Under the pieces are notes generated by a model that saw nothing but the letters and a program-made list of their open reading frames with translations, had not been told where the DNA came from and did not search any database. A DNA stretch of 53,739 nucleotides, filler included, from Asterionella formosa (lineage: Eukaryota): the NCBI GenBank assembly GCA_002256025.1. It is 4 parts of 4 records of this genome, joined end to end, with 100 filler letters (N's around TTAATTAATTAA, not from the genome) between each part and the next. Parts side by side here need not be neighbours in the genome. Positions count along the whole stretch, not along the records: positions 13,473 to 26,837 come from NKIB01006750.1; 3 more parts are not named here. One strand, given 5' to 3'. The position numbers and the translations under genes were made by a program. Positions 4,318 to 50,078 of this stretch are shown here, in pieces (the first letter of the stretch is position 1; each line of letters begins with the position of its first letter).

Positions 4318-5630
4318 TGTGATAGTAGGGCTCTGCTGGTGGTGGGAGCAGAGGAGTCGCCATTGTGATAATAGGGAGATGCTGGTGGTGGGATCAGAGG
4401 AGAAAGGAGATAGGCCAGCCAGTGTGAAGGCCGACCGCCTTACAACAACAGCAACAATGATGATGGAGCATTGAGTGTTGACGATTTTCATTATAATTAA
4501 TTACTATAATATTCCTACAGACCAGACTACTAATTTTCATGTAGGAATTAAATTTCAATTCTTGAGATCGGCCTTTTGACATATGGATTGATGTACTATT
4601 TAATCTTTGGGACCGTAAGGTGGCAAAAAAATTTCCTGAATACAAAGATCGAAGATTTTGCTGTGATAGCTTCGCAGCCAATATTCGATCTTCGTATTTT
4701 GTTGAAAGGTCTCGTACTCCTTCCGGTCTGACAGGTTCCTCTTATGTAGGACTTACCTGTTATACCACTAGCTAGTATTGTTATCTTCTTTCTGCTGCTA
4801 GCCTTCGTGCTAGTTTTCGCTATTGACCTTACTCTGTCAATTCTCACTGTTTCTTAATTATAAGCTTAAACTAAAAACTAAAGTTTCAATCCCATTCATC
4901 ACACTTCGAGAACCTGTTCTTCGTGTTCTCTTTTCGTTGATGTAAGCCTTCTTCTGATTGATCTAAGACATCAATCTCATTAGCAAGCTTCTTGACATGG
5001 GAACGCACCATTTGACTCATTGGACTATATTCGAGTCCACAGTCCTTGTGACTCATTATAGCCATTGATGCTATATTCTTGACAGTATTTCGGGGACAGT
5101 AAGTTTCAGCCTTACATACAATTGGTGCCCCTGAAGATAGGGACATAAATCTGGAATAGAGTGCTTTCGCCTCCGGAAACCAAACCGCCATTTTTGTATC
5201 ATATTTCGGCGATGATACACCAATGACAACAAATAACAGAATGATAAGAACGGCCCTAAGAATGAGTTAGGGGCCATCCTTTCTTGGCTTACAACATAAA
5301 TTCAGCAGGGCCGGGAGTACCATACCAAGCAACGAAAATTTTTAGCAATATTTATCCTAAATTAAATAATTTATTTAAGCAAAATGACCGAAACTTACAG
5401 ACACTCTTGACTTTAGAGATATTTAAATTGTATCAGAACACATGTACATAGGGTCTTAAGCAAAATGACCGCAAGTTGCAGATCCTGTACCTCAGCCTGC
5501 TAGCTCCAGCTAAATATTTCTCAAGAATGCATCTTGCTTGCATCAGATACATGACATCCCGGTATACCGGCAAATATATTCGATGGTGTCGTATTTACAC
5601 TATTTCTTATAGAAGGGATACGAAGCCATC

Positions 5631-5676
5631 TACTGGTATACCGGTAGCTAGACTACCTGGTACCTGGTACCCGGTA
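5631..5676. repeat. GGTACC/TACCWGG/TACCGG motif cluster upstream of the LRR gene
   Basis: tactggtataccggtagctagactacctggtacctggtacccggta, ~220 bp before ATG 5899. Confidence 0.85.
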
Positions 5677-5898
5677 TGGATTCCGTGCGATATTGTTGTT
5701 ACTCCAACCATCTTGTATGGAAGCGAGTGTGCTGAATAAAAGTCATTTGAAACTACCACTAAGGCGGACTTCTTGATCGTATCATTTGCACGACCATAAA
5801 AGTGCCTTGAAAATTAGGACCACATTCAGGAGCAAAAAGTTCCCCAATCAGCCGAAGCCCTAAATTATCCACAGAACGAACTGCATCTAACGACAAAC

Positions 5899-9086: not shown

Positions 9087-11411
9087 TCACCCTAGAAAGA
9101 CCCCACCACCCATTGTTTTTAGATCGTCGGTTTCAAAGCCGCCTACCTGAAGTTCTTTGGTCAGTTGCTTTCGCAAGGGACAGCGAGACTTACGGTACCA
9201 CCATAATTCAAACAATTCAAGTGTTATTCTTCCATTGCTTTCCTTGTCCATTTCTGAAAAGACAACGCTAAGTTCCTCGTCGTTGAGTGGAAAGCCAAGC
9301 ACAGATGCAAGTTCGCCAATTTCGGTCCGATCGAGGTACCCATTTTTGTCACTGTCAACTGCAGTGAAGACATCAGCGACGCCTTTGTAAATTCCTTCTC
9401 TTAGTTGTGCACCTGCTTTGTTGGAGATGCGACCGGCATACGAGCTTATATAGATGGTGGCGGCCTCAACCTGCTTCGCCTTGACTTCATTGCTCCAGCC
9501 TAACTCCTCGGCCATAATATTTGATACAACTGGAATGGCTTCCATTGCAGCATCCTTGTTGAGAAACGCAAGACGGGTTCTTCGACTCAAAATATCTTCA
9601 ATAGTGCAAGCGTACTCACGGCATGCATAAACCACTTCAGCATCAATGTACGGATAATTTACGGCAAGTGGGATTCCAAATCGAGGCCAAGCTTGACTCG
9701 TCGGCTTTGCATACTTGCAAACCTCCCAAGCACGCACACCGTACGTGTTGACAAGGTGTTTGGCCACATCCTGGGACATGCCATACTTTTGAATAAGCTG
9801 AATGGCAAGAGTATCTGAGTAACCTTCTCCACCCCCAAAGAGTGTAATATCTAGAGTCCTGCATGGCTTCCCGTCAGCAACACGATCGATTGCTTCTTCC
9901 GCCATTTCCCTCCATGTTGTCCACTTTCCTCCAGCAATAAAGATGATGCCAGATTCTGGGTTTTCCGAAATAACATGATCTCGTGACACTGGAGCACCTG
10001 GCGGTGCATGGGGATCGGCTGCCAATGGCCTCCAACCTCGCCACGCACTTAAAACATCAGACCGTCTGACTTGCAAATCAGGTCGTAAGTACTTGCTACA
10101 CTCGTTCAGTATCCACTCCACTTCGTCTTCTGGTGGACTTGGTGATGTTTCTGCTGTGTTTTTAGAGTCCGTAGTTCCAACTAGAGTATGCCCTTGCCAA
10201 GGCAAAAAGAAGAGAAATCTTCCATCAGAGGTGTTATAATCCAAGAGGCCCATGTTGGATGGACAATAGTATCCAGGAAGTACAATATGAGTCCCAGATG
10301 CACCCCTCACAGCGGGCTGCATGTCTTTCCCCTTGGTCTCCATTTCCCTCAATTCGTCCGTGAACGGTCCCCCACAAAAAATGATTCTCTTGGCTTTTAT
10401 AGTGAATTCATCGCCTGTCATTTTATCCAAGGCTTTGATTCCTGTCACCTTGAGAGAATTTTCCTCTCTGATGGTTTCCGTCATTTCTACGTAGTTGGTA
10501 ATGTGAGCCCCATGTTCTGCTGCGCTCAATGCAATTGCAAGGTTAGTTCTCGCATCATTGTGCTGTGCTTCACAAAAGACTGCACAATATTTTAAATCTT
10601 GATGAACCAGCTGAGGAAAAGCCTTGCGTGCCGCGCTCGGTGTTAAAATGTATGACGGTGGACAGTGAAAGCCCGACATGCTGTCATATACCTTCAAAAC
10701 AAAGGGTGCCAAAATGGGAAAGAATGAAAACAGCGGATGCCCAAAGGGAGCAGGTGTAGCATACCAAGATCGGAACGGAATAGCGATTGGAATCCAATTG
10801 CACAGATGCCCCTGTTTCTCCATCATGTACCGTCGTTCTCGGTGACAGTTGATCACCATCTTGATTTCCCCCACGAATTCCTTCATGGAACCGACTGGGT
10901 TAGTCACGGTGTTGACGGTCAAGAGGGAGGCAGCAGCGGTTGCCATGTACCTGATACCAGCCCAAATGAGTTTCGTAGACCGGCTGGACGTTTCCGATGC
11001 AAAGTCTCCCCGTTCGATGCAAGCAACCTTCAATCCGCGAGTCGCGGCATCAAAGGCACAACCCGCCCCTGTGGCCCCACCTCCGATAATCAATACGTCG
11101 TACTCTTCATTGGCTTGTAATCGCTGTACTTGCTGAGCGCGAGAGGGAATTCCCTCAGGCCCGTCCACTGCTCTGGGGAAACTGATAACGGATGTGTGTT
11201 CCAGGCCAACGTCGCGAGCGCTGGAAGCGGCGAAGCGTCTGTTTTGCTGCTGTTGGCTTTTCCAAGAACTGCCGGTTTTTCCGGTAGAAAAGCATCGTTG
11301 ACTCTGTTTGACAAGTAGCAGTCTAGACCCTGACGTGAAGGCGTATACCTGCATCGTTAGTATGACCAGGAGGAGATAGTATGTGCTATGAACAAGGACC
11401 GAACGAGGCAT
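9087..11411 (-). CDS. GPD2: FAD-dependent glycerol-3-phosphate dehydrogenase with C-terminal EF-hands
   Basis: DVLIIGGGATGAGCAFDAATRGL, ETSSRSTKLIWAG, DGRFLFFLPWQG, GGKWTTWREMAEEA, RRTRLAFL motifs; EF loops DSDKNGYLDRTE and DKESNGRITLEL; intronless, 774 aa. Confidence 0.95.
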   Translation of the reverse strand: MPRSVLVHSTYYLLLVILTMQVYAFTSGSRLLLVKQSQRCFSTGKTGSSWKSQQQQNRRFAASSARDVGLEHTSVISFPRAVDGPEGIPSRAQQVQRLQANEEYDVLIIGGGATGAGCAFDAATRGLKVACIERGDFASETSSRSTKLIWAGIRYMATAAASLLTVNTVTNPVGSMKEFVGEIKMVINCHRERRYMMEKQGHLCNWIPIAIPFRSWYATPAPFGHPLFSFFPILAPFVLKVYDSMSGFHCPPSYILTPSAARKAFPQLVHQDLKYCAVFCEAQHNDARTNLAIALSAAEHGAHITNYVEMTETIREENSLKVTGIKALDKMTGDEFTIKAKRIIFCGGPFTDELREMETKGKDMQPAVRGASGTHIVLPGYYCPSNMGLLDYNTSDGRFLFFLPWQGHTLVGTTDSKNTAETSPSPPEDEVEWILNECSKYLRPDLQVRRSDVLSAWRGWRPLAADPHAPPGAPVSRDHVISENPESGIIFIAGGKWTTWREMAEEAIDRVADGKPCRTLDITLFGGGEGYSDTLAIQLIQKYGMSQDVAKHLVNTYGVRAWEVCKYAKPTSQAWPRFGIPLAVNYPYIDAEVVYACREYACTIEDILSRRTRLAFLNKDAAMEAIPVVSNIMAEELGWSNEVKAKQVEAATIYISSYAGRISNKAGAQLREGIYKGVADVFTAVDSDKNGYLDRTEIGELASVLGFPLNDEELSVVFSEMDKESNGRITLELFELWWYRKSRCPLRKQLTKELQVGGFETDDLKTMGGGVFLG

Positions 11412-11719: not shown

Positions 11720-11857
11720 GTACCGGTATATACATACCGGTAGCATAACTACTGGTATGCCGAGATAATTGTTTGCTCCAAGACAATTGATTTTCATGTC
11801 GTCATGATGTCACCTACTACCAGGTACTCTGGTACCAGGTACCTGGTACCTGGTAGT
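11720..11857. repeat. GGTACC/TACCWGG motif cluster upstream of GPD2
   Basis: taccggta x2, tactggta, and taccaggtactctggtaccaggtacctggtacctggta, 300-450 bp upstream of the minus-strand ATG. Confidence 0.85.
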
Positions 11858-13372: not shown

Positions 13373-13472
13373 NNNNNNNNNNNNNNNNNNNNNNNNNNNN
13401 NNNNNNNNNNNNNNNNTTAATTAATTAANNNNNNNNNNNNNNNNNNNNNNNNNNNNNNNNNNNNNNNNNNNN
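13373..13472. other. assembly gap spacer N44-TTAATTAATTAA-N44
   Basis: Identical 100-nt structure at three positions; artificial six-frame-stop linker. Confidence 0.97.
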
Positions 13473-17179: not shown

Positions 17180-18208
17180 AGTAACCTGACAACACCACTT
17201 AGTGCAAATTTTTGTATACAAATTTGCGACTGACACACTTGTTTCATTGATGCATCACACGACTGCCTTCAGGGATGCAAAGACAATCTTTTGCTAACAA
17301 TTGTTACCAGTCCCGCTTGGTTTCTTTCTATGTATCATATTTTTACCTTTAACTAGTTTTATAAAGACAATCTTGTATTGAGCAATTCGATTGGTCTATG
17401 TTGATGTATTTTTACAATTCAAACTCTTGCTGGCACACATCGGGCATGGAGCTAATTACAGTTACCATCAAATCTTCCTTGGACAAAGTCTTTTGATCAT
17501 CTGGATGATACACGAGCTTGAGGAGTCTATTCCTGGTCTTGAGACAGTATACGAAGTCCATGAAAAATGCTGAATGGTTTTGTCAAGTATCAAAGCATCC
17601 ACTGATGCTGACACTGAAAGCTATCCTGAATAAGGCAGTCTTCTGTCCATATCACCATGGCGTCATCAAAACTTTTATAGGGCTTATTATCTGGGAGTAC
17701 TTCAACGTTCTTCCATTCAGAAAAGGCGATTTATGTAAGGCACCTTTTGAGTAGAAGAGGGTTTTTCTTGCTGGAGGTTAGGCATGGAATTAACTCACAG
17801 TAACCAACAAAGCTTCAACTGAGCTTCCGTGAATCTCATCTTGGCTGGTTGAAAGACTCAAGACTTTCGAACTGGTACGAATGCATAAAAGGTGCTATTC
17901 TTGATGTTTAGTAGGTTGAAATCCTTGATCAATGGGACCACTGGGACCTGAGAATACATCAACATTGTTAATTCTAATTTGATTCTTTTTGAAATCAAAG
18001 TGAAATATCTCACTAGAAGTGGTAGCATTTTTTGAATAAAAGAGCTTATTACTTCATCCTAGTGTGCAACTCATTCTCCTACTAGGCTGACACTTAAGTA
18101 TTCAATAGGTGTTAGTAGTTGAGTTTTCTCTTGGTAGAGTTCTGATATTATCTATGAAACACTAACCCTATAGGTGTACCGGTATGTGTAGTTGACCGCA
18201 ATCGCTCA
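17180..18208 (-). mobile_element. Gypsy-family LTR plus 5' internal region (copy of the 47984 family)
   Basis: Begins TGAGCGAT at 18208 (minus strand); shares cctatagggttag, agaactcta and attagaattaacaatgttgatgt blocks and the downstream internal repeats with 47984-48780. Confidence 0.75.
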
Positions 18209-18243
18209 CCTGGTTTGTCTACATAGCTACTGGTAGCCAGGTA

Positions 18244-19876
18244 CCAGAAAAGAACTGCTGTGACCCACTGAGTTCTCCTATTCGTTTGATTAGTTCGACT
18301 AAACCTTTTCCATGCCTTGCGAGAATCAAACTTCCAGGTCTTGTTAACCAAAGGATTCAGCAGGTTGTGGATATGTCGGTATTCTCATTGAAGGTCGAGG
18401 TACTGAGATACGATCCCTTTTATGTTGACAAAATTTGCCGGTAATGGGTCACAGCTGTACTTAAATTTTTATCTATAATTGTATATAATTGTATATACCA
18501 TTATGATCACGGATTACCCCGTTTGGTTTTCGCAAAATTATTTTGAAGAATTTTCGCATCCAGTATTTATATCACAATCACACACAAATGCATTCAGCCA
18601 CATTAAATGCTTGCGCTTATCAACACCACTGCAATGTCGCCCTCATCCCTAGTACTAAGCTCCTGCCCTCCCACAAGCACAACATCAAGAGGCCGAATTG
18701 GATATGGAGAATCCTTTTCTCCACGGCAACAAGTCTCCAAGTATCTTGCCAACAAGTTCTGTTTGGTTATTGGAAGCGGCGCATCGCCGTTGCGCCTGTA
18801 CCATGTCACCATTGTTTTCAGTTCAGCTAGTACTACGTTGTAGCTTCTAGCTTCTTTCCAGTCTCTCTGATGGCCTGTGCCTTCTGTGACAATTAAAAAA
18901 ACCGTTGACTCAATTTCTGCTCCTTGTTTTGTTCCTGGATTTCATGCCACCAGCGTTTGATTTCCAGCATATGCTCAAAAAGCGGTGGTCCTAGACAAGT
19001 GTTTCCAACAGCAAAGTGCAGTCCTGCGGTCATTCGTTTGTGTTTGTCGATTGCTGCTTGTGCTGTTTGCTTTCTTTTCCTGGCATGATGTTCTGCTGAA
19101 TCATTACCATTTCGCACATCTTCTCACTTTATGTATTCAACGATTTGATTTGTAAGAGTTCCTGAAAGTCCTTCTCGCAGGTCGAGCTGGTCAGGTGTAA
19201 TAGAGTTGCTGCCTGTTACTGTGTGAGATTCTATTCAATGGGACAACACACACCAAATTTCGTCAGCTGCATTTCAGGATTCAACAAACAATTATAGTTC
19301 AAAGGTCCCCAGCCTCGCTCTGCTACCGCTTTTTTGTTTGTGCGTAATCTCGCAAAACCTTTCTCCCAAGAAGTGAATTTGCAAGTTGCAGTCCCTCTCG
19401 GCATGTGATGGGCGACTCTTGGCATGTGATGGGCGAACGCATTTTACTCAACTGATCAATGAGCTCCACAATGTAAGGTTCCACTTCACGCATAGGTGAG
19501 AGGCGTTCTGTGTTTGTTCCTTGATTGTTTTTTCTTTTTGCACATGTTCTAACTGTTTCGAAATTAATATTGACAGTAGGAGGAATACCAAGCGCCTCCT
19601 TTTCTCTCAGTATTATACAGGTAAGTGTATTTCTCTTTACTCGTGATTCTCCTCCTCCTCCTTTTTCTTTTTCCTCTTCTCTCACCCCTCATATATTCTG
19701 CTGCCGAATTGGAAATACATTCTTTCACTTTTTCTTTGGATGATCACCATAGGGCAGGGTTGTAGTGGCAGAAATGGTGCTGCTGCATTTGGTAGGGTCA
19801 AACCGTGTTTTTCTCCTGTTCAGTGGGTCACAGCGGTTCCAATTTTTTTTAGTGGGTCGCAGCAGTTTTTTACTGG
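18244..19876 (-). mobile_element. pogo/Tc1-like DNA transposon, internally deleted, with TA-flanked CCAG...CTGG TIRs
   Basis: TA|CCAGAAAAGAACTGCTGTGACCCACT (18244) and AGTGGGTCGCAGCAGTTTTTTACTGG|TA (19876) are imperfect inverted repeats; fragments EVEPYIVELIDQLSKMRSPITC..EGLQLANSL (CENP-B-like HTH) and KAVAERGWGPLNYNCLLNPE; DDE core deleted. Confidence 0.75.
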
Positions 19877-19912
19877 TACCAGGGTGCCTACTGTACATAC
19901 GGGATGACAGTA

Positions 19913-21156
19913 CCTGCAAGTTGCGGTAATTTTGCTGAAACTAAAAGTTAAGCTATCTTTATCCGATATTAAGGTAATATCGCTAGGGTTGTAGAAAAAG
20001 CGTGGAACAGGGAGCTTCCTACTATGAATTCTCATGATTCGAGTGTCCATTTGAATATTTGAATTAAATAGGAATCGGGGCCAGATTGATAGAGTTCCAT
20101 TTTAAAAAAATTATAAAATTTAAACGTTTAGACTTTTTCTACATTACTGAATTTAGGCATAATTTTGCTCAATGGCAAAACACATGCATATATAAATTAG
20201 GAGCATGCCATAATGTATGCTCATGGCTCTTGTTTATACGTTCATAATGAATCTGTGTCGCTGAATGTAGTTTCAATATCACTCCACGCACAAAGGTATA
20301 TACCGGTATGAAAATCAGTGCCGGAGTCCCAGAGTAACGGTATTTCGGTACTCGGAGCACCAGGTAGTAAATAATATTGGTCCATCATGATGGAGGACAG
20401 GATGTACTACCGATAGCAGTGTACCAGTACTGATTTTACCAACCATTTTTTAGCACATCTAATATGTGTGGCTCAAGTGTGGCTGGCGAGATTTTACAAG
20501 ACCGGGATACTTCAGCGAATCTGGAGCAGGTGAATAAATTCAATTCAACCAATCAGAATATGTGTAGGGACGCGGGAACTTACCCTGGAGTCTTTTCGGA
20601 CTGAGAATTATTCAGTGAAACATACCCACGCAAGACTCCAAGTATACGAGAACGTTTTTGCACATACAAATTCTGATTCCAATATTTTGGCACCTGTTGA
20701 AAAAGCCGATCGGGTCGACTTTTTGAAGGATGATTGCTCTACATCTACGGGGTTTCATGAAGAATGAAATAGATAGCCGTGCACCCTATAACGTCAGGAT
20801 TTAACTTCTGCAGAGAAGTGGCAGTTATCCCTCGTAGATTTTTTCAAAAGCTTGATGGCCCCCTTTTTTGACTATTTTTTGGATAGTTCCGATTCTAAGA
20901 GGGATAACTGCCACTTCTCTCTAGAAATGAGATCCTTACCATATCTTTTTATAGATCATACCCCTAAGTCGACCCATGACTGTATCTAAGCATAAGCAAA
21001 GTGGTCGTATTGGTGAAAGCTAATTTTACCTTTAACTATTTTACTTCGTTGCTCGTGCTGTGTGGATTGAAGTACATAATATAATTATTTTGGAAAAAAA
21101 CAGACCTCGTGTTACCTACCGGTAGTTTAATTAGCAAAATTACCGCAACTTCCTGG
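19913..21156. mobile_element. non-autonomous TIR element, TA-flanked, CCWG termini
   Basis: TA|CCTGCAAGTTGCGGTAATTTTGCT at 19913 and AGCAAAATTACCGCAACTTCCTGG|TA ending at 21156; no coding capacity; a related TIR lies at 5459-5481. Confidence 0.7.
20796..20936. repeat. long imperfect inverted repeat (arms ~45 bp, 22-bp perfect core)
   Basis: agagaagtggcagttatccctc ... gagggataactgccacttctct. Confidence 0.9.
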
Positions 21157-21490
21157 TACCAGGTACCAGGGTACCTGGTGCCTACCTGATCGAGTATCGA
21201 TGTACCAGGTACCAGGTATGTAGGAGAAATTGTACTCTATCTTAGGTGCTGGAAGACCGGGTCGTACCTGGTACCTGGTACGAGGTACCCTGGTACCTTC
21301 AAGATTCTTGATATTTACAACCAGGTACCAGGGTTACAGGTACCGGTAGCTGGTTCCAGGTACCTGGTACCAGGTACCAGGTACCATCGTGAGCAACACC
21401 TTCAGCAAGTGTACCGGTACCTGGTGCTGGTACATTTTACCGGTACCAGGGTACCCTGGTACCAGGTCGACTACCGGTACTCTACCAGGA
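21113..21490. repeat. largest (GGTACCW)n / TACCGG array, upstream of the HIBCH-like gene
   Basis: Dense tandem and inverted ggtaccag/ggtacctg units, e.g. ccaggtacctggtaccaggtaccaggtacc; ends ~120 bp before ATG 21611. Confidence 0.92.
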
Positions 21491-21610
21491 TAGCAACATT
21501 CATTACTTGACCCTCTCTCTAACATAATCATATGCCTCGTCCCTAAAGGTTGAGCTCCTCCTTGTTCTCGCCAGGGCCCCCGCATTCGCTTTTACGCTCT
21601 CATTTTCATC

Positions 21611-23176
21611 ATGCACCGCGTCCTGATAGGGCTGACTCCCCACAGACGCCTGCTGTCGACACAAGCACCATCGTCATCAAATACGCTGTCGACAATGCTC
21701 GCCGAGAGAAAGCTCGTAGAGCCAACTCCAAAATCCGTCTATAGAATTCCCTGTGGAAGCCAACCGGTGGGAAATGCGTCGGCTGTCATACGCGATATTG
21801 GATGTTCTCGACGAGTTTTTCTTTTGGATCCTGCGCTAGATTCAGAAGAGCTGGAAGGTCTTGCTCATCGCATCAAGATCTTGACCAAAAACTCTGGAAT
21901 CAACAGTGTCCTCATTGCCAACGACGATTCAGACGATAGGGCCTCCAATTGCATGCCGGCACACATTAGCGATAAAGAAAATGATGATTTTTTAGCAGAG
22001 ATGATGGGAATCAGGGACTTCCACCAGAAAACAAAGCACGTCAGTCAAGGGTACGATCCTCTAAAGGTATTCACAACTGGAATGTACCGAGACAAACCTG
22101 CACTTCACGAGTTGTTAGAGGGACTTACAAAGCTTGCTAGGGCTTGTAGAGGAGAGGATCAACGCACCAAGGTGCCCGTAGTGACTGTGCCTCATGGAAG
22201 AATCACTGATGGAGGATACGCCATTTGTCTGGCATCCTATGTGTTGGCCACGGACGAAACGTCGTTTAGCATTTTGAACCCTTCTCGTGGACTCGCATTG
22301 GACCCTATTGGCCTTTCCCACATTCTGCCTCGACTTGGTTGGGATTTTCAACAACACACTGCCAGATACCCTGGATGTGGTATCCTCTTGGCGTGCTCGG
22401 GCATGGAAGCCAACTGCCACGACATGCTATATACTGGTCTCGCCACAAACTATATGAACTCCATTCGCCGACTTGGACCACTGGAGTGTGTTATTGCAAG
22501 TATATATCCATGGAATCAACAAGCACTGTTCAAGCCGGAGAAACTGATATACGGCCAAGATCCGCTTCCTTTTGATGAAAACGAGCCTGCTCGTAATTGT
22601 CAAATCGCGAATGCAGTTGAAGCTGCATCGACATACTCGGTTTTTTGCACCATTTTGGACGATAGCGAGCCTCCAAATGAGGACGACCCAACGACAAATC
22701 TAGACTACTTTCCTTATCTTGGCACAGATCAACCAACTCCGTTGATTGATCGAGCCATTGTCTTTAAGGAAATCTTTCAGGAAGAAGGAACAATTCATGG
22801 TATTGTCGAACGCTTCAAAGAAGAAGCTGGCCGAACACCTTCTCAGGTGCACACAAGGGCCAATATTGAAGCAGCTGCCATGTTGGTGCAAGGTTTTCAG
22901 AGTCAATCGCCCTTGGCCCTGACTGTTGTATATGAGCTCTTGAAAATGGGAGCCCGAAATACTCAAACCCTGGATAGTTGCATTGAACGCGAAACCAGAA
23001 CTCAGATGAACATGTATGCAAAATCTGATTTTAAGAAGTGGGCAGAACACGTATTATCCAAGGGACCAACTGTACCATTCAAAGGGTGGACCCACAAAAG
23101 TCTGCAGGAGGTTCACCAGGACGAGGTGGCTGAGATCATTGATGCTTCGAAGGAGTTACCACCTCTCATGAAATAG
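21611..23176 (+). CDS. divergent 3-hydroxyisobutyryl-CoA hydrolase-like (crotonase/ECH_2 fold) mitochondrial protein
   Basis: Mitochondrial-like presequence (MHRVLIGLTPHRRLLST); HGRITDGG..VLATDETSFSILNPSRGLALDPIGLSHILPRL, GLATNY, QSPLALTV and CIERE...SDF align with the HIBCH family. Confidence 0.8.
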   Translation: MHRVLIGLTPHRRLLSTQAPSSSNTLSTMLAERKLVEPTPKSVYRIPCGSQPVGNASAVIRDIGCSRRVFLLDPALDSEELEGLAHRIKILTKNSGINSVLIANDDSDDRASNCMPAHISDKENDDFLAEMMGIRDFHQKTKHVSQGYDPLKVFTTGMYRDKPALHELLEGLTKLARACRGEDQRTKVPVVTVPHGRITDGGYAICLASYVLATDETSFSILNPSRGLALDPIGLSHILPRLGWDFQQHTARYPGCGILLACSGMEANCHDMLYTGLATNYMNSIRRLGPLECVIASIYPWNQQALFKPEKLIYGQDPLPFDENEPARNCQIANAVEAASTYSVFCTILDDSEPPNEDDPTTNLDYFPYLGTDQPTPLIDRAIVFKEIFQEEGTIHGIVERFKEEAGRTPSQVHTRANIEAAAMLVQGFQSQSPLALTVVYELLKMGARNTQTLDSCIERETRTQMNMYAKSDFKKWAEHVLSKGPTVPFKGWTHKSLQEVHQDEVAEIIDASKELPPLMK

Positions 23177-23579
23177 GCGAATTATCGATAAACAATGGTT
23201 AATAGAAGCTTTTCAACACACTATCTGTCCGCTTTATCTTCCTTGTTTAAATCGGACTGAACTCTACAGCATGTAGTATAAAGAAGTAGTAACGTGGCCT
23301 TATCGATTGGCTTCAACGGGAGTTTGCTCGTTTTACCATGATATTTTGGATATAGCTTCGAACTAGCGATGCATGACAATTCAACTAAAAGGCAACATAA
23401 TGATGTAGGGATACATCAGACGCGAGAAAATTATGCACTCCAGTTAGAATCTGATTTTCTTCGCCCGTGCAAGTCAACGCTAGTTCCCATTATGAGTAAA
23501 AAGGCGACCATCTCCGTTGTCACTAGACTGCAGTAGTAAAAAATGAATCAAACGAAAGAACAAGATCAAATCTTGGCTT

Positions 23580-24194
23580 TTAAAAGTCCAAATCGTCAAG
23601 CTCAAACAATCTTTCTTGTTGCGGCTCCGACGACACCAGCTTTTTGACCTGTAATGAGATCAGTGGGACAACATTCTCCTTCCCGTCGTCTCGGCGAACG
23701 ACGCCGGGCACATCATCGAAGTCCACTTTCGATCCTTTTTGCGTAATCTCCCCGTCTTCATTCATCATAACGTAAAATGGTACGCTCTTGAATCCTAGTA
23801 TCTGCTTTGCTTGTTCCTTGTGCTGTGATTCCATGAAATAGTGCTGCAAATGGTTCCACCGTAAATCATCTTGCTGTTCAAGAATTTCTCGAGCACCATC
23901 AAGCTTGTCGCAACAAATCGACACAAAATGTATGTTTTCGTACCTCACATCCTTTGCCATTTCATCCAGCTTGTCGAGCGCATCAGGGCATCGCGTGCAT
24001 GTAGTAGTCCAAAAGTCTGAGTAGGTGAGGGAATGTTAGGAATGAAAAATAAGTGAAATGAACGAGAACTGACAGGAAAACGCACCAATCACTGTATTTC
24101 TTCCCCGGAATGCATCAATTGTGTTGGTGATTTGAGCTGTGTGCAGTGATACTACTGGAAGGTCAGGAAGGGAGGAGATTGAACGGACCGTCAT
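23580..24194 (-). CDS. thioredoxin-fold (TlpA/redoxin-like) protein, 181 aa; exons 24194-24086 and 24016-23580
   Basis: Intron 24085-24017 (GTGCGT..TCAG) yields VIDFWTTTCTRCPDALDKL with a CxxC motif; cis-Pro region SVPFYV. Confidence 0.88.
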
Positions 24195-24456
24195 GTTTCG
24201 AGGAGTTTGGTGTTCGAATTTTTTTCAAAAATGTCGGTGGCAAAAAAATGAGAAAACGGAAGTGATTTTCAGGGATACTGTACTCTACAATTTTCTATTC
24301 AGTGTATCCTACATCTTCACTTGTAAATGCGACTATTATAGCTGGCGCGAATCGTGAGTTTGGCTGTGCGCCACATAAACCTGCCGGTAGTCTACCATTC
24401 ATGCTCCCGGTAATATCTGTCTGCGCGTTGAAGTGTTGCGCATACATATGTACATC

Positions 24457-24585
24457 TGTACCTGGTACCTGGTACCTGGTACCGAATACAGCAAAAGAGG
24501 GCATAATCGCAGACGAGCACGCTCCGAAGTAAAGCAAAGGTGACAATTAGCTACCGGTACGACCTGGTACGACTACCGGTAGTAG
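24457..24585. repeat. GGTACC/TACCWGG cluster upstream of the thioredoxin-like gene
   Basis: gtacctggtacctggtacctggtacc and ctaccggtacgacctggtacgactaccggtag, 260-390 bp upstream of the minus-strand ATG. Confidence 0.88.
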
Positions 24586-26076
24586 CCATGTGGCGTCACA
24601 TCTACATCATACATATGTTCTGCAAGGCAGGAGTTGTGACGGTTAAAGGACTACCAGTAGGCAATGGCAGGAGAGGGTTTTGCATGTACGGATTGGCTGG
24701 GATGTAGCTAAATTTCTCATTGTTTTGCGGATTCAAGAATGGAATTGGACTACCGGTATGTGAAGGCTTCTACCGCATTCAGTCCAAATTTTTCGATCCC
24801 CTGCCACCCCCCACATGGGCAGAACAGTGCAAACCACTATCTTTGAGTCTGGTTTACTTTCACCACAATGTAGTCAGTCACACTTCATACACATGGAACA
24901 CTTCAGCTCCGGCCGCTTAGCTCCTATATGGAGAACATGGTCATGTGCAACAGCCTTGGATGAGGAAGAAATAGGCATGAATTGTCATCAGTGTCTATAC
25001 AAGCACAAGTGCAATTTCTCGTTTGTAGTCATGTACTTTAAAAGTTAATTGTGAAACATACACATGGAAAACTTCACATGATGTACAAATTCAAACAAGA
25101 TGCCAGGGCACATACAACACATTTTACCCTTCAGACTTAAAAATTGTAGGCTTATCCTCTATTTTCTCCCTATTTTGACTCCATCAAGAATTCAGGGGTA
25201 TAGTCAAAGTTGTAACTCAACAAAAATTAAAGAATTTGTGGTAAGCATTTCTTGAGCCCCTTCCCTGTAACTGCAAGAGTGATCCCTGAAATTGGTTACT
25301 CCCGCAAATCCCATAGCTACTTGTGATGAAGTTGTAATCCAGACAACATTTTGCTTATGTCATGCTTTAGAGAATTTGGCATTAGTAAATTCCTAGGTAA
25401 ATTAGTAAATCTATGATAATACATTTCTTAACTATCTTAAACAGCCAATGATAAACATCATGAAATGCAGCCATGGCTGGCAAAAAATCAAAGAAATGAG
25501 CAAGCCAGAGACCATGACGGAAGCTGAAAGCGGCACCTGTTGTTTGTAAACTGCATCTAAGAAGGCAAGTCTTTCGTTGAGATGTGAATGCAAATGGCTG
25601 GGGCGCCAGTAATTTCTCACAGGAGACACCTTGCTAGGTTGTGTAGTTTTGCGATGTTGATTTCAATCAATCATTGCTCTATCTACAAACCTAAAAATTC
25701 ACGTCAACCATAATAAAAGCCTCTATTAGACTAGCAGCTGCAGTTAGAATTGTGGCTTCAAGGAGTAGCTCTTTGCCATGCTGTATCCAATGAAACCATC
25801 ATGGTCAGCAGGCAGTCATGACATACCATAAGTGGGGTTAATTAAATCAAAAGGCAGTTTGCCATAGGAAAAGATGAACAAGCTAAAATAAAATTTTCAT
25901 GTAAGTGTCACTTTTTACTACACGTTTTAAGTACCGGTAGGTGAAATACTACCGGTAGAGCAATGCTCGAGTTTGTTCTACACATGTGAAGTGCTCCATG
26001 TGTAACTTACTTACCGGTAAACAGGTAGTACATAGCTATCATTACAAGTTTTACAAAATTCTACGAGTAAAGGTAC

Positions 26077-26250
26077 TGGGCGCGCTCTGATAATAAAAAA
26101 TTATTATATCATGTGTGTATTATAACACAAATTATTTTGGCGATTTGATACATAATAACGTCGTCACGCTCTGATAATCAAGATATTTTAGATTAGTCAT
26201 CTGACATTTTATAGAAATTTAACTTTAATTTATAACAGTTATATTTTCAT
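26077..26250 (+). mobile_element. dispersed repeat / transposon terminus (homologous to 53564-53739)
   Basis: tgggcgcgctctgataataaaaaattattatatcatgtgtgtattataacacaaattatt... shared with 53564; the sharp common left boundary suggests a TE end. Confidence 0.75.
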
Positions 26251-26592
26251 AGCGATGCATCCTCTTGCCTGGTGGTTATGCAGCCTCTTGTTCATTATCC
26301 ACATGAGTTCCATAATTTAACCACCAGTATCAGTCACTGACCAGCATGTCGGCTTAGTCTACCTCTCCTCATCTCCTGATGACAAGGATGATGCCATGAG
26401 TGAACTTAAAAAAAGAGACAGAGACATAGAAATTTCAGCTTTTCTCAAGAAGCAAGTCTTTGTTAGTCGAATCAGGCAAACAGAACTTTCACAACAAGGT
26501 ATTGCTCTCCAAGAACGACTTTTCACTCCTAAACAAAGACAGTCAGAGGAACATGCATTGTTTGTTTGCCCATGCTATGGACTGAGCCCATC

Positions 26593-26825
26593 CCATTCCC
26601 GCTTTTCAACGACAAGTTCATATCAATCCCCATAGCGATGGAGGTGAAATCAATCAAGTTTTCGATGAAATTAAAAATCAATTTCATCATAGGCAAGAGC
26701 GATTGACAGTACGCCCAACTTATTCCCGACTTTCAACGACAAGATTTTTTGTATCAATTCTTCCCATGGGGACGGAGATGAATTCAATCCAGTCTTGATG
26801 ACATTGAAAATCAATTTCAACAGCT
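26593..26825. repeat. diverged ~127-bp tandem duplication
   Basis: attcccg(c/ac)tttcaacgacaag...aaaatcaatttca occurs twice. Confidence 0.75.
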
Positions 26826-26837
26826 GCGAGAGAAATT

Positions 26838-26937
26838 NNNNNNNNNNNNNNNNNNNNNNNNNNNNNNNNNNNNNNNNNNNNTTAATTAATTAANNNNNNN
26901 NNNNNNNNNNNNNNNNNNNNNNNNNNNNNNNNNNNNN
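26838..26937. other. assembly gap spacer
   Basis: N44-TTAATTAATTAA-N44. Confidence 0.97.
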
Positions 26938-27099
26938 AGTAGGTGAACAAGCAAGGAATCTGCTGGACTGAAGATATATGTGTTAGCCATATCACAGGAT
27001 TTACTGAAATCAATAAACAAGCTTCCCCTGAGCGTCAATTGATCATATCTTTGCTGTAAGACTCCAAATTTCGACCTGGCTTGTAAGGATACACAAAGA

Positions 27100-27406
27100 A
27101 GTTTGAATCTTGATGTTTAGTATGTTGTTATCCTTCATCAATGGGACCACTGGAACTTGAGAGGACATCAACAATATTAATTCTAATTGGACTCTTTTTG
27201 AATTCAAAGTGAAGTATCTAACTAGAAGTAGTAGTATTTGTTGAATATATGAGCTTATTTGTTAATCCTTGTGTGTAACTCGTTCTCCAAGTCGACACCA
27301 AAGTATACAATGAGGGTTAGTCGAGTTCTCTCATTATTGAGTTCTGATACATATATGATATAACACTAACCCTATATACATCTGTATTGATGCGCAAGAT
27401 CGCTCA
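27100..27406 (-). mobile_element. Gypsy-family LTR copy plus adjacent internal sequence
   Basis: Minus strand begins TGAGCGATCTTGC at 27406; ends ...gatacttca followed by ctttgaattcaaaaagag; homologous to the copies at 47984, 49660 and 18208. Confidence 0.8.
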
Positions 27407-27722
27407 CCAGGTACCCACCCTGGTACCAGGTACTTACTACCGCTATAATGATCTTCAGGTTGCAACCATCAGCCACAGGTGGAAATCAGGGCAGGCACCC
27501 GGTAGTTCTATTTTCGAATACCGGGTACCGGTATACTGGCCGAGACGTTTTAGCTCAGTCTTGATTTCTTCAGATTTCTCTCTGCTGATTCGTGATCCGA
27601 ATATTGTAACTTCGCTGAACACAACGCTATCGTTTACTGTTCGTTTGCCTTTGGTCGTTCTCTTTGATAAATCCCATTACGAGATTATTAAACGCTGTAG
27701 TGCAACAAGTACAAGAGGCATC

Positions 27723-32600: not shown

Positions 32601-34859
32601 TTTCATAGTAGTGGCCCATATGTGTAATGCACAGAATATAAACAACAATATGTAGATTGGACAATTTATAATATTTAATTTTTAGGGAGAAGTGAACAAG
32701 CTGTTTTATTTGTTTAACCCATTCAGCTTGCATCACCTTTTATATACCTATGTAGGTATTGCAAAATGTTTTGGTTGGAACATTACTAATGTAGCGTATG
32801 AATAGGCAGACTATTTTTCAGTACATAATATGCAACAATGTCACATTGCATGTACATTGCATGACTGCTCCTGCATGCTATTTTAAATCAAGGACATTCC
32901 AATTGGAGAATGTCAACTGCAAATTCATGACATGCCTAACTAAATGACATTGAAATTTTATAATGGACAATACCACAATCTCCCAAAAATTTGTCATCAA
33001 GAAGTTGAGAGCTATTATCAGCAACAAAGCCTCCCCTGGCTGCAATGAAGCACATCCATGATACCTTTCAAAGAACAGTAAACCATACAGTTCATTCTAA
33101 ACAACATAGTGGGAGTACCGGTACATATTCTACCATGGTATTATACTATTGATCTTCAGCCAGGTTGCAACTATCAGCCACAGGCGGAAATCAGGGCAGG
33201 TACCCTAGAATTCCAAACTTTCTACCTTCGCTAAACATTTAACTGAATATGCAAAATAACTCTTGCCAGGTATTTTACCATCATATCTTTTCACTACAAT
33301 AACCCAGGTCAATGATAGTGACAGGAAATTTCAGGAAACACAAGAGGGGAGGATGGAATGTGGGGGTATTAATCTGCTTGACAATATTTTTGCTGACGAA
33401 GCATCATACACTTTGTTACGACCCTAGTATAGTGCTAAGAATGAGGAGCATAAGTAAGTGATACAGTTGAGAGAATTGAACAGGTGTCCTCTTATTATCG
33501 GTATCAACGAAATGTGAAGAAGCCAATGGAAATGCACAAATTTTAAGAAGGTGTGCATACAATGGGGATCCAACCAAGAATACCAGTATGAAAGTGATTT
33601 GAGTGGCAGCAGCAATGACAATGCTGAGACTCATCAGAGTCATCAGCAAATGATAAAGAAGAATCAGCCGCAACAAGTACCAGTATCGAAGGCGCTGAAT
33701 ATCTGTAAGAGAAATCCAGCCAATATCGATGAAAATACCAGGTTCGAAAAAGGTGTGCGATTATAAACAAATGGAGATAAAGAGAGGGAACTTAGTAAAG
33801 CTGTGACAAGTACAAATACCAACAACAGTTACAACACAATGCAGCTCAAATTATATAGAATGCAGGAGTTCAGAACTTGCAGTCGGAAACACAAGAAATT
33901 CATGAGACACTAGCACAAATGTTCACAATGATGAAACAACTCCATCAACTGCACCTGACAACTACCTAATCAAGAGAAATTGAACCAAAAAAGTAATAAA
34001 CAGCATGCCACTTATGCATCTAATTTGGACCGCACTGATGATGCAATTCAGGTGATGAGTAGCTTATGCGATTTTCCAAATGGACTAGAAGTATATTAAG
34101 TTGCTCACGGAACAATATTTCAAGAAACATACAACAAAACAGGTCAGAAGAGGCCATTCAAAACAACAAAGTATCACCAACAACAGCGATAAGGGGAAGA
34201 GAGAATTTGAAGGAGAAATAAATGAATACAGGGCGGTATAAACTATGATCGTCAGTGGTCACAACACTGGGGGGAGGGGCTTCCAGGGGGAGAAAGGCGT
34301 CACGACAATGATGTTTGCTTTATTTTCTAGAACATGAACGTAATCACAAGCCAGTATGTTCATGTACACGCCGAAATTCAAAGTAACCAGATGCAAATGG
34401 ATAGTCAATTGACAGGAACGTGTGAAATGAATGGCAATTGGCGATTTAAGGTTTTCGGGATAAATGGGAAAAGAGATTATCAACAGGAAACACGGAGCTT
34501 AAGTTTAGTTACACATCATTTAATGAAGGCACAGACGCGCTGTGACAACGTGGAGGGGTTGACATGTTCTGTACATCACGTTTTCACTCATGAGTACTAT
34601 AACGTGGCTCAGATAAGGAAATGGGGAGATGGATAAGATTGTGTTTTAAAGGGACAGCTGAGTTCTACTTTTTAGTGATAAGAGCATACCGAGTAAGTCA
34701 AAAAACATATTCAGGACTAGGTATGGAGACGGCTTATAGTATGCACCATGAATGGAGGAAACTGAAGGTATTTCGGAGCACAAACTGAAATCCAAGATAG
34801 GAATTTTGGAAGTGATCTATGTCACAGGTACAATTCTTTCAAGAATACGGTGATGAGAA

Positions 34860-40299: not shown

Positions 40300-40399
40300 N
40301 NNNNNNNNNNNNNNNNNNNNNNNNNNNNNNNNNNNNNNNNNNNTTAATTAATTAANNNNNNNNNNNNNNNNNNNNNNNNNNNNNNNNNNNNNNNNNNNN
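40300..40399. other. assembly gap spacer
   Basis: N44-TTAATTAATTAA-N44. Confidence 0.97.
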
Positions 40400-46720: not shown

Positions 46721-47823
46721 TTATCCTATTTCAATCAGTTCACGCATGACATCGGCGAAGCACATTACCCGGAGGTCGCCTAAACCCATTGTTGGTGACA
46801 ACATCAAGAATAATTTGCCAAATCTGTGAAATACCTTGCAATACAGCATCCAACTTCCTGACAGTTGGAAGATAAACCCAGGAGCATTGGGCATTGGATC
46901 AACAAGCTCCAAACTAGTCAGAAATTCCATTCCACTAGCAAGTTCTTTCTTTTTATCATCATCCATGAGTAAGCAAAAATTGTGTAAGCGTGCCCAAGCA
47001 GAAAGAATTGCAACTGATTTCTTCATCCTGAAGGACAATGATGTCCTCAGGATCCTCCATTTATTGGTGAGCAATCCAAACCTCATCTCAATTCTATTGC
47101 GTAGTTGTGGAAGGAAATAGCAGTTGTATGCATCTTTGTTTGTTGATTCCCTTTGAATTCCAACAAATGGACAGAGCACTTGATCAGTAAATGTGTAAGC
47201 AGCATCACCTACTACTATGTATTGTCCTACTAGAAGAAGGTTGGATACAATCTTAAAAAGTTTTGTTCTTTCAAATGCCTTCTGATCTGGACATTTTCCT
47301 GGTGCCACAACACCAAAGTATAGGAAACAACAATTGCTGTCACAAAGAGCTTGAACATTCAATCCATATGACATATAATGCCCAGACCAATATGCTTGAG
47401 TGAAGCCATCACAATCCTTTTTTCTTGGTTTAGAAATAGTCTGTAAATATCCATCTATAGCACCAATGCATCCACAAAATAGTTGCTGCTCGTTTTTTCA
47501 AGGAATCCATTCATCACTGTTTGTTTCTCCTTGTTTGTTGTAGGGAATTTTACTGATAATGCTATGCAGGACTTCACCGCATCAAGGAATGTTTTAGTGA
47601 GGATGGCATAGACAGATGGATAAGAAACTCCATAGACATGACGAATGTCTATGAGGTTTCCGCCTGCAAGCCAGCGAAGTCCGATGGCAAGGATCACCTC
47701 AGGATAAATATGCTGATTTGAGATGTATAAACCGGAACTTGCATTTGATTTAACAACATTAACTGTGATGGAAGGTCGAAGGAGTTCCAGTACCGGTAGT
47801 TGATTGAAAGCTTCAAGAGACAT
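46721..47823 (-). pseudogene. PIF/Harbinger (DDE_Tnp_4/HARBI1-like) transposase pseudogene
   Basis: LAIGLRWLAGG, CGCIGAIDG, GLNVQALCD, GDAAY, RIEMRFGLLTNKWRIL and ARLHNFC motifs; frameshifted. Confidence 0.92.
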
Positions 47824-47983
47824 TGTTGGGAGTTTTGAACGGTAAAAGACAGTTATTTACTGTATGGAAAACATGGCTAAATTTGTCATTTACCGCAACT
47901 TTGCCCTTGATATACCAGTACAACAATAACATCGGATTACATTTGTTTTACCAGGTACCTGGTACCCCGCAGGGGGGGGGGGT

Positions 47984-49855
47984 TGAGCGATCTTGCTCAA
48001 CAACAGACACACCTATAGGGTTAGGTTTACATAGATACATCAGAACTCTATCAGGAGAGAACTCGACTAACACCTATTTGAATACTTTAGTGTCCACCTA
48101 GGAGATCGAGTTTCACACAAGGATTAACTAATAAGCTCGCCATACACTACTACTTCTATTTAGATACTTTGAAATCAAAACGAGTCAAATTAGAATTAAC
48201 AATGTTGATGTATTCTTCTCAAGTACCAGTGGTCCCATTGATCCAGCAACAGTTTGAATTGTAAAAAGAAAGCAACACAGACCAATTGATTTTCTCGGTT
48301 TCGACTTAGTTTGAGAGTCAATAATCATTCTAAGATCGTCACAAGGACCCAAAGCATGGATTCTACCATGATACAAGAGCGCTGAAGGCAATCATGTGAT
48401 AGTCAAGAAAACAAGCGTGACTGGTGTCAATTTTCTAACACAAAATCGTCTATAAATAGTTAAAGTTGAATCAAGAAGCTAAGCGGGACTGGTGTCGAGT
48501 TTTAACACGAAATTGTCTTTATATAGTTAAAGTTGAAGGCAATCATGTGATGCATCAAGAGACCAAGCGGAACTGGTGTCAATTTTTTAACACGAAATTG
48601 TCTTTATATAGTTGAAGTTGAAGGCAACCATATAATGCATCGAAAAACCAAGCGTGACTAGCTAGTGTCACTATTAACAAAAGATCGTCTTCGCATTGCT
48701 GAAGTCAATTGTATAATGCATCAAGAAAACAAGTGTGTGAATTTAAGAAATTTTTACACAATATTTTTACATGAAGCGGTTGTGTTAATGCACATGCAAT
48801 CATGATCGCAGCCAGCCATGCATGCAGTTGTGAACCAACAGTCAAACATAAGGTGGCCCCTCAATTTTATCTTATTACTAACACTTTCACTGCTAAACCA
48901 GTTACTGTTCCTCTTGCATGGAATTTTTTGCAGAGCAAACTATCATAGTGACACAGCTAATCCTATTCATGTTTTCTGCCTTGCATGCATGTTTCTACAA
49001 ATCCATGGGTTAGCCCCCCCTATGACTATATCTGGTTAGGGTACTGTGCCGAGGGCCATACATGCCGAATTTTATGAATCTGCCAAGGAAAATTTAGTGA
49101 TCATGAACCCTCCTGTTGGGCAGCTAGTGGCCATTGTGCCTAAAATCCAGCAGAATGCTGAACAGATCGCCTTAAAGTAAAACAGTCTACAAGTTATGTT
49201 AAAGGCTCATCCTCCAATCAATGAATTTCAAGGCTCAGATTATTGTGGATGCATGTTTTGCAGCTGCATCATATGCAGCTCGAGCTACTATTTATAGTGC
49301 ATTGCATATTTCACCAGGAACATGGGTTTTTCAACATGATATGATAGTAAATATTCCTTTGATTAAAGATTTTCAATTAATATTGGAATATCAATGTCGA
49401 CAAGTGATTATTGAAAAATTTCTACATCGTGCTAATTTCCATCATTGTTCTTATGATTACAAAGTTGGTGATGAGATTTTAATTCTGTTGGATAATCCTA
49501 CTTCCTTGGATGACCATTGATGAGGTCCTTATTCTATTATTCAAGTATATGCCAATGGTACAGTTACTTTTCAATGAACCATGCATATTACAGAATGAAT
49601 TAATATTCATCATTTCAAACCTTTTCATAGGTGAAAGGTTTTCCCTTGGTGTGGGAGAGTGAGCAATCTTGCTCAATTACAGACACACCTATAGGGTTAG
49701 GTTTACATAGATATATCAGAACTCTATCAGGAGAGAACTCAACTAACACCTTTTTAAATACTTAAGTGTCAACATAGGAGATCGAGTTGCACACAAGGAT
49801 TAACTAATAAGCTCATATAATCAACAAATACTAGTACTTCTAGTTATATACTTCA
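47984..49855 (+). mobile_element. internally deleted Ty3/Gypsy element with two ~190-bp LTRs (47984-~48168 and 49660-49855)
   Basis: Direct repeats TGAGCRATCTTGCTCAA...tacttca; integrase C-terminal relic (YAARATIYSALHISPG..YDYKVGDEIL..PYSIIQVYANGTV) followed by a PPT (GTGGGAGAG) before the 3' LTR; ~75-bp internal tandem repeats at 48385-48740. Confidence 0.85.
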
Positions 49856-49859
49856 CGGG

Positions 49860-50078
49860 ATACCTGGTACAAATAGTTCTGCCTCCTTCGATCGACTCTT
49901 ACTGGTACACACTGCCTTCCTGCTAGGCATATATCATAGTACTGGGTACCGGGTATCTAGAACCCGGAACTATACCACTAGGAGTACACACTACACACTA
50001 CCTAGTGCCAGTAACTGCCAGTACCAGGTACAAATACCGGTATCGGTACCTGGCAACAGTACCAGGGTACGACTGGTA
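49860..50078. repeat. GGTACC/TACCWGG cluster upstream of the SP-RING gene
   Basis: tacctggtac, gggtaccgggta, agtaccaggtacaaataccggtatcggtacctgg, gtaccagggtacgactggta. Confidence 0.85.

Follow-up and report, generated by a model that had tools for sequence, protein, structure and literature searches.

What builds a dense, palindromic repeat just upstream of so many genes? The question is raised by a stretch of 53,739 nucleotides from the diatom Asterionella formosa (assembly GCA_002256025.1; the whole stretch is called the window below), in which arrays of GGTACC(A/T) and TACCGG motifs stand before most genes, the main array lying before a HIBCH-like gene. The original prediction, made from the sequence by itself, had offered two answers: insertion and excision footprints of transposons, each event creating a new TA target, or a lineage-specific promoter or insulator element. 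We found that the arrays consist of short strings such as CCWGG and CCGG (W, A or T) between TAs, that transposable elements with TA flanks and CCWG ends sit at TAs of these same arrays, and that W varies independently from one unit to the next. With moderate confidence, we read the arrays as stacks of Tc1/mariner-type excision footprints that also serve as insertion hot spots upstream of genes.

The motif family behind the arrays is strongly over-represented. Counting GGTACC, TACCGG, CCGGTA, TACCWGG and CCWGGTA together gave 180 hits in the window; GGTACC itself occurs 42 times, compared to a mean of 4.87 and a maximum of 11 in 100 dinucleotide-preserving shuffles, and is the top over-represented hexamer, with the top heptamers all being shifts of one motif family. 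Across the whole window, the palindromes occur as follows:

TACCGGTA, 23 observed, 0.28 expected
TACCWGGTA, 22 observed, 0.23 expected
TACCSGGTA, 3 observed, 0.12 expected

The middle base of the nine-base palindrome is therefore nearly always A or T (22 TACCWGGTA versus 3 TACCSGGTA). We found that the arrays parse as TA-x-TA strings in which x is mainly CCWGG or CCGG: among the 144 TA-to-TA strings in arrays of the window, 22 are CCWGG, 15 CCGG, 10 empty, 5 a single C or G and 4 CCAGGG or CCCTGG, and the strings carry the duplicated TA boundary that marks a Tc1/mariner excision footprint. Tandem Repeats Finder called period-7 arrays at 5654, 11818, 21155-21466 and 24458, and periods of 6, 7 and 8 are mixed, with isolated TACCGGTA palindromes common. 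DNA folds of four array pieces gave hairpin z-scores between -3.2 and -5.3, bearing out the expectation that the arrays could form hairpins, as a palindromic repeat must. The hexamer TGCATG is also over-represented in the window (44 versus about 11 expected from base composition).

We located the arrays relative to genes labelled by Pfam (strands and frames are given where they fix the direction of the gene):

21157..21490, main array, upstream of the HIBCH-like gene, with x mostly CCWGG, CCGG, CCAGGG or CCCTGG (55 hits in 21117-21489)
5559..5677, array upstream of an LRR gene whose frame opens at 6040 and whose long frame has its first ATG at 6295 (11 hits)
11721..11855, array upstream of GPD2, which lies on the minus strand with its ATG at 11411 (15 hits)
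24384..24582, array upstream of a thioredoxin-like gene on the minus strand (16 hits)
27407..27534, array upstream of an ankyrin gene (11 hits)
47949..47967, short array some 100 bp 5′ of a DDE_Tnp_4 open reading frame (ORF) on the minus strand, 46721-47856 (6 hits)
49861..50066, array upstream of an SP-RING gene, whose frame has its first ATG at 50130 (11 hits)
25932..26020, three scattered TACCGGTA sites where a TA-flanked, CACATGG-ended element has its right end (26002), with no Pfam-supported gene downstream

Upstream and downstream were defined as 600-bp windows at nine Pfam-supported genes, the nine upstream windows making up 10% of the window, and a cluster as at least six motif hits (n=8). 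Seven of the eight clusters fall in upstream windows, a count that none of 20000 random placements reached, and none of the eight lies in a downstream window or in a coding sequence. Single hits show the same distribution, with 127 of the 180 upstream, 5 downstream and 14 in coding sequence. These data uphold the claim of the original prediction that the arrays stand 5′ of genes regardless of strand and are absent from coding sequences and 3′ ends, and all six gene starts that it named agree with our intervals, to which the short array at 47949-47967 adds a seventh. Its observation that arrays are weak or missing before the second LRR gene and the CRAL-TRIO gene also held (2 and 0 upstream hits), leaving two of the nine genes without arrays. 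The two palindromes are distributed differently: all 22 TACCWGGTA copies lie inside upstream windows, and 11 of the 23 TACCGGTA copies lie outside them, including within repeats.

RNA contigs from two studies start 43-55 bases past the last unit of the main array (X16 at 21532 and X12 at 21544); they match the HIBCH-like gene without mismatch, and DNA contigs continue across their start point. This is a weak hint that the transcript of the HIBCH-like gene starts just behind the array. For the thioredoxin-like gene, RNA contigs stop at 24016 and 24017, a sign that this gene may have another exon upstream. RNA depth over the arrays themselves derives from other contigs and is uninformative on this locus.

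Transposable elements lie in and beside the arrays:

19913..21156, element B, 1244 bp, non-coding, opening with CCTGCAAGTTGCGG and closing with CCGCAACTTCCTGG between two TAs, inserted at an array TA
18244..19876, element C, 1633 bp, opening with CCAGAAAAGAACTGCTG between two TAs, inserted between CCAGG-TA and TA-CCAGGG of the main array
19877..19912, piece of array between elements C and B, reading TA CCAGGG ... CAG TA
17789..18214, plus strand, family A end (copy 1), closing in ...CGCTCACCTGG and followed by array remnants
26999..27411, plus strand, family A end (copy 2), closing in ...CGCTCACCAGG and followed by TA and the ankyrin array
47972..48246, minus strand, family A end (copy 3), with a C/G run between it and the array at 47949-47967
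49659..49856, minus strand, family A fragment (copy 4), whose inner break adjoins the SP-RING array

Upstream of the HIBCH-like gene, the order is thus family A end, array remnant, element C, array remnant, element B, array and gene. The main array extends leftward past both inserted elements, with remnants at 19877-19912 and around 18215-18243, and array units stand directly outside both flanking TAs of element C. The interval originally given for this array, 21113-21490, stands from the TA at 21157 onward; its first 44 bases (21113-21156) are the right end of element B.

Elements B and C share the form TA-CCWG...CWGG-TA. Element B ends in CCTGC and CCAGG, with an inverted repeat over 23 of the first 30 end bases and a longest open frame of 77 codons; element C ends in CCAGA and CCAGT, with an inverted repeat over 24 of the first 30 and a sole frame of 121 codons, and no frame of either has a Pfam match. 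Both look like non-autonomous Tc1/mariner elements of the miniature inverted-repeat transposable element (MITE) kind, having terminal inverted repeats, a TA duplication, no transposase and many look-alikes: in run X2, 41593 contig pieces were placed, mostly on element repeats, a depth that is not a copy number. They resemble Stowaway-type MITEs in being non-coding and TA-flanked with many look-alike contigs, and differ from typical MITEs in their length of 1.2-1.6 kb, only an 86-bp relative of element B at metagenome locus L021 being short.

Family A ends read ...CTCACCWGG in two of the four copies, one of which is directly followed by TA. Read inward, this end is CCAGGTG, identical to the first seven bases after the TA of the Mos1 5′ repeat as given by an oligonucleotide in the available part of PMC2642840. 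Copy 1 carries a private 6-base surplus compared to copies 3 and 4, at a place where 18177-18184 reads TACCGGTA; by our own reading of the alignment, the surplus would be CCGGTA at a TA. The bases found between TAs in the array units are therefore also the end bases of elements B and C and of two of the four family A copies.

Elements adjoin arrays beyond the window as well. The relative of element B at L021 lies directly behind an array, a short form of family A resembling copy 4 lies against a different array at L112, and contigs of other runs link array sequence to the left end of element B via variable letters. We set aside three alternative interpretations of these data. A 5-base target duplication CCTGS for element B was dropped because look-alike contigs of other copies match on through CCTGC to 19910-19916, and also because TA/TA flanks suit both B and C. 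L112 is not the orthologous SP-RING promoter, as its array part does not align and it represents another locus. The joint 19838>21152 seen in X2 and X6 could represent an allele without element B and was not used, its shorter side being only 28 bases and its flank a repeat. A further TA-flanked element at 24890/25061-26002 has CACATGGA... ends rather than CCWG, with three TACCGGTA sites around its right end.

How could such elements leave such arrays behind? In the excerpts available, the cut of the Mos1 mariner is staggered by 3 bases (PMC4505599), in vivo mariner footprints are consistent with 5′ breaks that lie 2-3 bases into the element (PMC2642840), end joining after Sleeping Beauty excision leaves a footprint between two TAs, TAG(T/A)CTA (PMC2874221), and plant mariner-like elements leave 1-4 bases on excision (PMC9632168). 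Tc1/mariner elements target TA and duplicate it on insertion. We propose that such a cut-and-paste element leaves 2-3 of its end bases on each side on excision, and that end joining then yields TA+CC+GG+TA (TACCGGTA) or TA+CC(W)GG+TA (TACCWGGTA). The site would thereby lengthen by 6 or 7 bases per round and gain a further TA, again set between GG and CC, so that a site once used would offer more targets and grow into a patchwork of (CCWGGTA)n, which is equally (GGTACCW)n. On this reading the arrays continue to serve as landing sites, and three CCWG-ended families lie in or against them today.

Several observations fit this model. An array unit equals a TA duplication plus 2-3 end bases of a resident transposon, which is the known form of a Tc1/mariner footprint; applied to elements starting with CCW, the footprint rules predict TA-CC-GG-TA and TA-CC-W-GG-TA, the two dominant palindromes; and the gain of 6 or 7 bases and a new TA per cycle gives the observed period. 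The model also predicts that W is set afresh in each unit, as the W pairs described below indicate. The preference for A or T in the middle of the nine-base palindrome agrees with it, as do the 11 of 23 TACCGGTA copies outside the upstream windows, where 0.28 would be expected in the whole window, and the surplus of family A copy 1, which yields a TACCGGTA at a TA. The strings that are neither CCGG nor CCWGG read as a prefix of CCWG followed by a suffix of CWGG at a higher rate within arrays, in 15 of 73 cases inside the arrays of the window versus 172 of 1363 outside, and in 649 of 1299 versus 1753 of 5980 at the metagenome loci introduced below; letter-shuffled strings gave means of 8.8 and 557 and maxima of 13 and 578, respectively. 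On these grounds the footprint half of the original prediction is the one we favour, at the moderate confidence stated at the outset.

The arrays share with Sleeping Beauty and Mos1 footprints a duplicated TA on each side, a few element end bases between and an ambiguous A/T in the middle (PMC2874221, PMC4505599 and PMC2642840, in the parts available), and with Mos1 in particular the CCAGGTG start of its 5′ repeat. They share with the footprints of plant mariner-like and Stowaway-type elements such as Osmar5 and Ppmar2 the 1-4 end bases between TA copies, and excerpts of the same work report reinsertions of plant mariner-like elements close to coding regions (PMC9632168). What differs is arrangement: known Tc1/mariner footprints are single scars at single donor sites, whereas the present arrays line up dozens of them head to tail upstream of genes, interspersed with new elements, and excision is read from the sequence; stacking of footprints is not described in the excerpts of the plant work. 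Searches of open-access text returned, in the passages available, no description of footprint arrays that stand before genes and still receive inserts, and the motif strings themselves appeared in the open-access literature only in primers and barcodes.

We then asked what similar arrays look like in other genomes. A metagenome contig scan with TACCWGGTACCWGGTA gave at least 132 loci, 80 of them with flanks of up to 2 kb; all figures for these loci refer to the matches listed. Ninety-four loci have a GC content of 0.38-0.50, many with dense arrays, and repeat sequence of the window recurs only in L021 and L112, so the remaining loci belong to other organisms. Their ORFs are eukaryotic (HSF, globin/HSP90, endonuclease V, DUF6818/DUF6824 and LRR proteins with 34-44% identity to those of the window), and the nearest Atlas cluster of the endonuclease V is mostly Oomycota. 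Similar arrays are thus present in contigs of at least one other eukaryote, and the suggestion that they are specific to this lineage fails. The arrays there mix TACCWGGTA with (TA-C/G)n: among 1984 TA-to-TA strings, 429 are C or G, 400 CCWGG and 31 GAC or GTC, and pure (TAC)n runs reach 23 units. At L041:1996-2870 and at other loci with GC of 0.42-0.46, a patchwork of TACCWGGTA, TACTAGTA and TAGTAGTA extends over hundreds of bases upstream of genes.

For the position of these arrays, an ORF was accepted if it had 200 codons or more or a Pfam match, and four duplicate and two bacterial-looking loci were removed, leaving 30 array groups. No accepted ORF contains any of these groups, 26 gene sides face away from the array versus 16 toward it (p=0.16), and the two-sided cases comprise six divergent, four tandem and two convergent pairs. 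The arrays are therefore intergenic in this second eukaryote, and a 5′ bias there is weak and not established. Complete TA-flanked CCWG elements were limited to one doubtful 148-bp case at L052, and a general TA-flank search gave no further CCWG family, in a weak search that required near-perfect ends within 2-kb flanks.

Two pairs of loci represent one locus in two samples. L050:1281 and L075 are 99.85% identical over 4 kb, their sole indel being 5 bases that turn TA into TA-GAC-TA, and L046 and L067 differ by a 54-base tandem duplication outside the array (about L046:2154-2207). The scan pattern also matches tandem repeats of a single heptamer, (TACCAGA)n at L003 and (TACCTGT)n at L073 among them, and sites within ORFs of high-GC contigs; these high-GC or bacterial-looking loci (L003, L073, L007, L014, L035 and others) are unrelated and served solely as a control for copied units. 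The TA-GAC-TA indel, the prefix-and-suffix strings and the family A copy 1 surplus are smaller observations that agree with footprint formation.

The behavior of W is what separates footprints from a microsatellite. If the arrays had arisen as heptanucleotide microsatellites through slippage or unequal exchange, aided by hairpins and decayed by point mutation, neighboring units would be copies of each other. The period-7 calls of Tandem Repeats Finder and the strong hairpin folds are compatible with that origin, as are the (TAC)n runs of other species, where neighboring (TA-C/G)n units are the same in 473 of 711 pairs; a review, in the part available, also suggests that the joining of target duplications on excision can be the seed of a tandem repeat, which then lengthens by slippage (PMC9659126). 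However, pooling the window with the 94 loci of GC 0.38-0.50, W of adjacent units is the same in 87 pairs and different in 71 (p=0.23), compared to 26 same and 4 different in 19 high-GC loci with true tandem copies, so that W does not pass from unit to unit as in a slippage repeat, and this independence argues against slippage. Runs of perfect units are also short (among 124 runs, 101 have two units, 19 three, 3 four and 1 five), and the mixture of periods and the many lone TACCGGTA palindromes do not suit a heptamer repeat. We consider a microsatellite origin improbable. The arrays do resemble the transposon-born repeats of PMC9659126 in arising at a cut-and-paste excision site, and differ in that the model copies one seed; because adjacent units here do not share W, most appear to have arisen singly.

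The position of the arrays is what most recommends the second half of the original prediction, a promoter or insulator element. We framed it as a cis-regulatory or boundary element that is under selection and has an origin of its own, where TA-targeting elements simply prefer to insert or are tolerated alongside. Such an element could consist of clustered palindromes TACC(N0-1)GGTA for a dimeric DNA-binding protein or of a nucleosome-excluding or insulating structure, and with known clusters of promoter-proximal transcription factor sites and insulators the arrays share a place about 50-700 bp upstream of starts, palindromic units and clustering. The concentration of clusters within 600 bp upstream and their absence from 3′ flanks and coding sequence, the confinement of all 22 TACCWGGTA copies to upstream windows, palindromic sites with a free middle base, the weak hint from the RNA contig starts, and the intergenic arrays of the second eukaryote with 26 gene sides facing away all fit this explanation. 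It gives no account, however, of why the resident TA-flanked elements start with CCWG, so that the unit matches transposon ends. Half-site spacings of 0, 1 and 2 together with many partial strings would be unusual for a single protein, 11 of the 23 TACCGGTA copies lie outside upstream windows and some lie in repeats, two of the nine genes have no array, and the orientation bias in the second species is non-significant (p=0.16), two of its 12 two-sided cases being convergent. We regard this explanation as possible but distinctly the less likely. The palindromes could also stem from a different route of break repair, either hairpin opening of the hAT type with P-nucleotide additions or template switches in gap repair, rather than from staggered mariner cuts. 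The units are perfect palindromes, as hairpin opening would leave, and several units per repair event would ease the problem of event number; against this route, the complete elements in the arrays have 2-base TA duplications and not 8-base ones, and the strings start with C and end with G beside TA, like the element ends. It seems to us as improbable as slippage.

The footprint model itself faces a number of difficulties. No Tc1/mariner transposase domain was found by Pfam in any ORF of the window, which is 53.7 kb of the genome only, and no pair of element-bearing and scarred-empty alleles was seen for any inserted element among the public-run contigs. The fully retained 3+3 product TACCATGGTA is rare, with one copy at about 33131. 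To reach at least about 35 units within 330 bp, a single place would have to undergo a very large number of events, unless one repair event could add several units. The simple model does not predict that TACCWGGTA should be confined to promoter arrays and TACCGGTA scattered, and the partial copying of (TA-C/G)n neighbors in the other species (473 same versus 238 different) and the few elements found at those loci also weigh against it. Because the array is self-complementary, the flanks of any insert resemble an extension of its inverted repeat, and the assignment of CCWGG to family A rests on two of four ends and the likeness to Mos1. Finally, a preference of elements for a pre-existing array would equally place inserts at array TAs, although it leaves the match between the elements' own ends and the unit unexplained. 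On balance, we still infer that the units were probably made by excision, in many events or in single repair events that added several units, and that the elements may prefer the 5′ flanks of genes, perhaps in the open promoter chromatin that the original prediction invoked.

Whether the arrays could be assembly artefacts of a repeat-rich, metagenome-derived sequence was assessed with public-run contigs, placed over 19000-26800, within a single piece of the window. DNA contigs from two runs of different studies match the array edges with zero mismatch:

X2, 21438-21694 and 24454-24743
X6, 21374-21884 and 24476-24773

None of the listed DNA contigs covers the 21157-21490 array from end to end, and the order of its inner units is therefore not confirmed by an independent assembly. 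Contigs break within the arrays and the window itself is pieced together, as an artefact would have it. Against this stand the mismatch-free edges in two studies and the presence of the same kind of array in 94 loci of GC 0.38-0.50 among the 132 matches listed, and an artefact is very improbable. The contig depth summed over the arrays greatly exceeds that of the adjoining gene, indicating that the run contains many other contigs with look-alike arrays; on repeats and arrays this depth is not a copy number.

The genes around the arrays are those of a eukaryote. By Pfam, the longest frames of the window are LRR, DAO/DAO_C/EF-hand, ECH_2, thioredoxin-like, ankyrin, CRAL_TRIO, zf-MIZ, DDE_Tnp_4 and copia gag, confirming the labels GPD2 (mitochondrial glycerol-3-phosphate dehydrogenase) for DAO/DAO_C/EF-hand, HIBCH-like for ECH_2 and SP-RING for zf-MIZ. 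Two among the nearest Atlas clusters of GPD2 are mostly Bacillariophyta, and the public runs in which the stretch occurs comprise metagenomes of lakes and fresh water plus one algal sample. Three identical 100-base spacers at 13373-13472, 26838-26937 and 40300-40399, each 44 N + TTAATTAATTAA + 44 N, recur at steps of about 13.4 kb, so that the window looks like four segments, each about 13.4 kb long, with a six-frame stop linker between them, or else is masked there; gene neighborhood across the three spacers is not to be trusted. The PIF/Harbinger-type DDE_Tnp_4 transposase frame (46721-47856, minus strand) is split into two frames, 47455-47856 and 46721-47497, with a TACCGGTA at 47791 inside the upper one, and may be a mobile copy or a host-retained gene. 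A 45-base block occurs at 27456-27500 and 33161-33205 with 93% identity and motif hits beside each copy, and neither Rfam nor the tRNA scan matches it. Over the whole window these two scans likewise gave nothing, and so lend no support to small RNA genes beside the arrays.

The origin of the arrays and their present function are separate questions, and regulatory use is a possible later use of scars. The arrays may have some effect on transcription, and one can imagine that the scar stacks act as self-reinforcing landing pads, steering mariner-type elements to a harmless strip upstream of genes, with the hairpin-prone palindromic GGTACC units co-opted as a promoter-proximal or boundary module; we hold this extension of the footprint model to be rather unlikely. 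Single excision footprints are textbook knowledge, and stacked arrays before most genes of the window appear, from the open-access text searched, to be the new part. If the footprint model is true, it would provide a concrete, testable route from transposon traffic to lineage-specific repeats with a periodicity of 6-7 bases, explain the randomness of the repeat's variable base and furnish a marker of past transposon activity at diatom promoters. For annotators, it is a warning that a palindromic "promoter motif", however strongly over-represented, can be a mutational scar. And if the arrays do serve as landing pads and were co-opted in this way, much of the promoter DNA in this diatom lineage would have been written unit by unit by transposon traffic.

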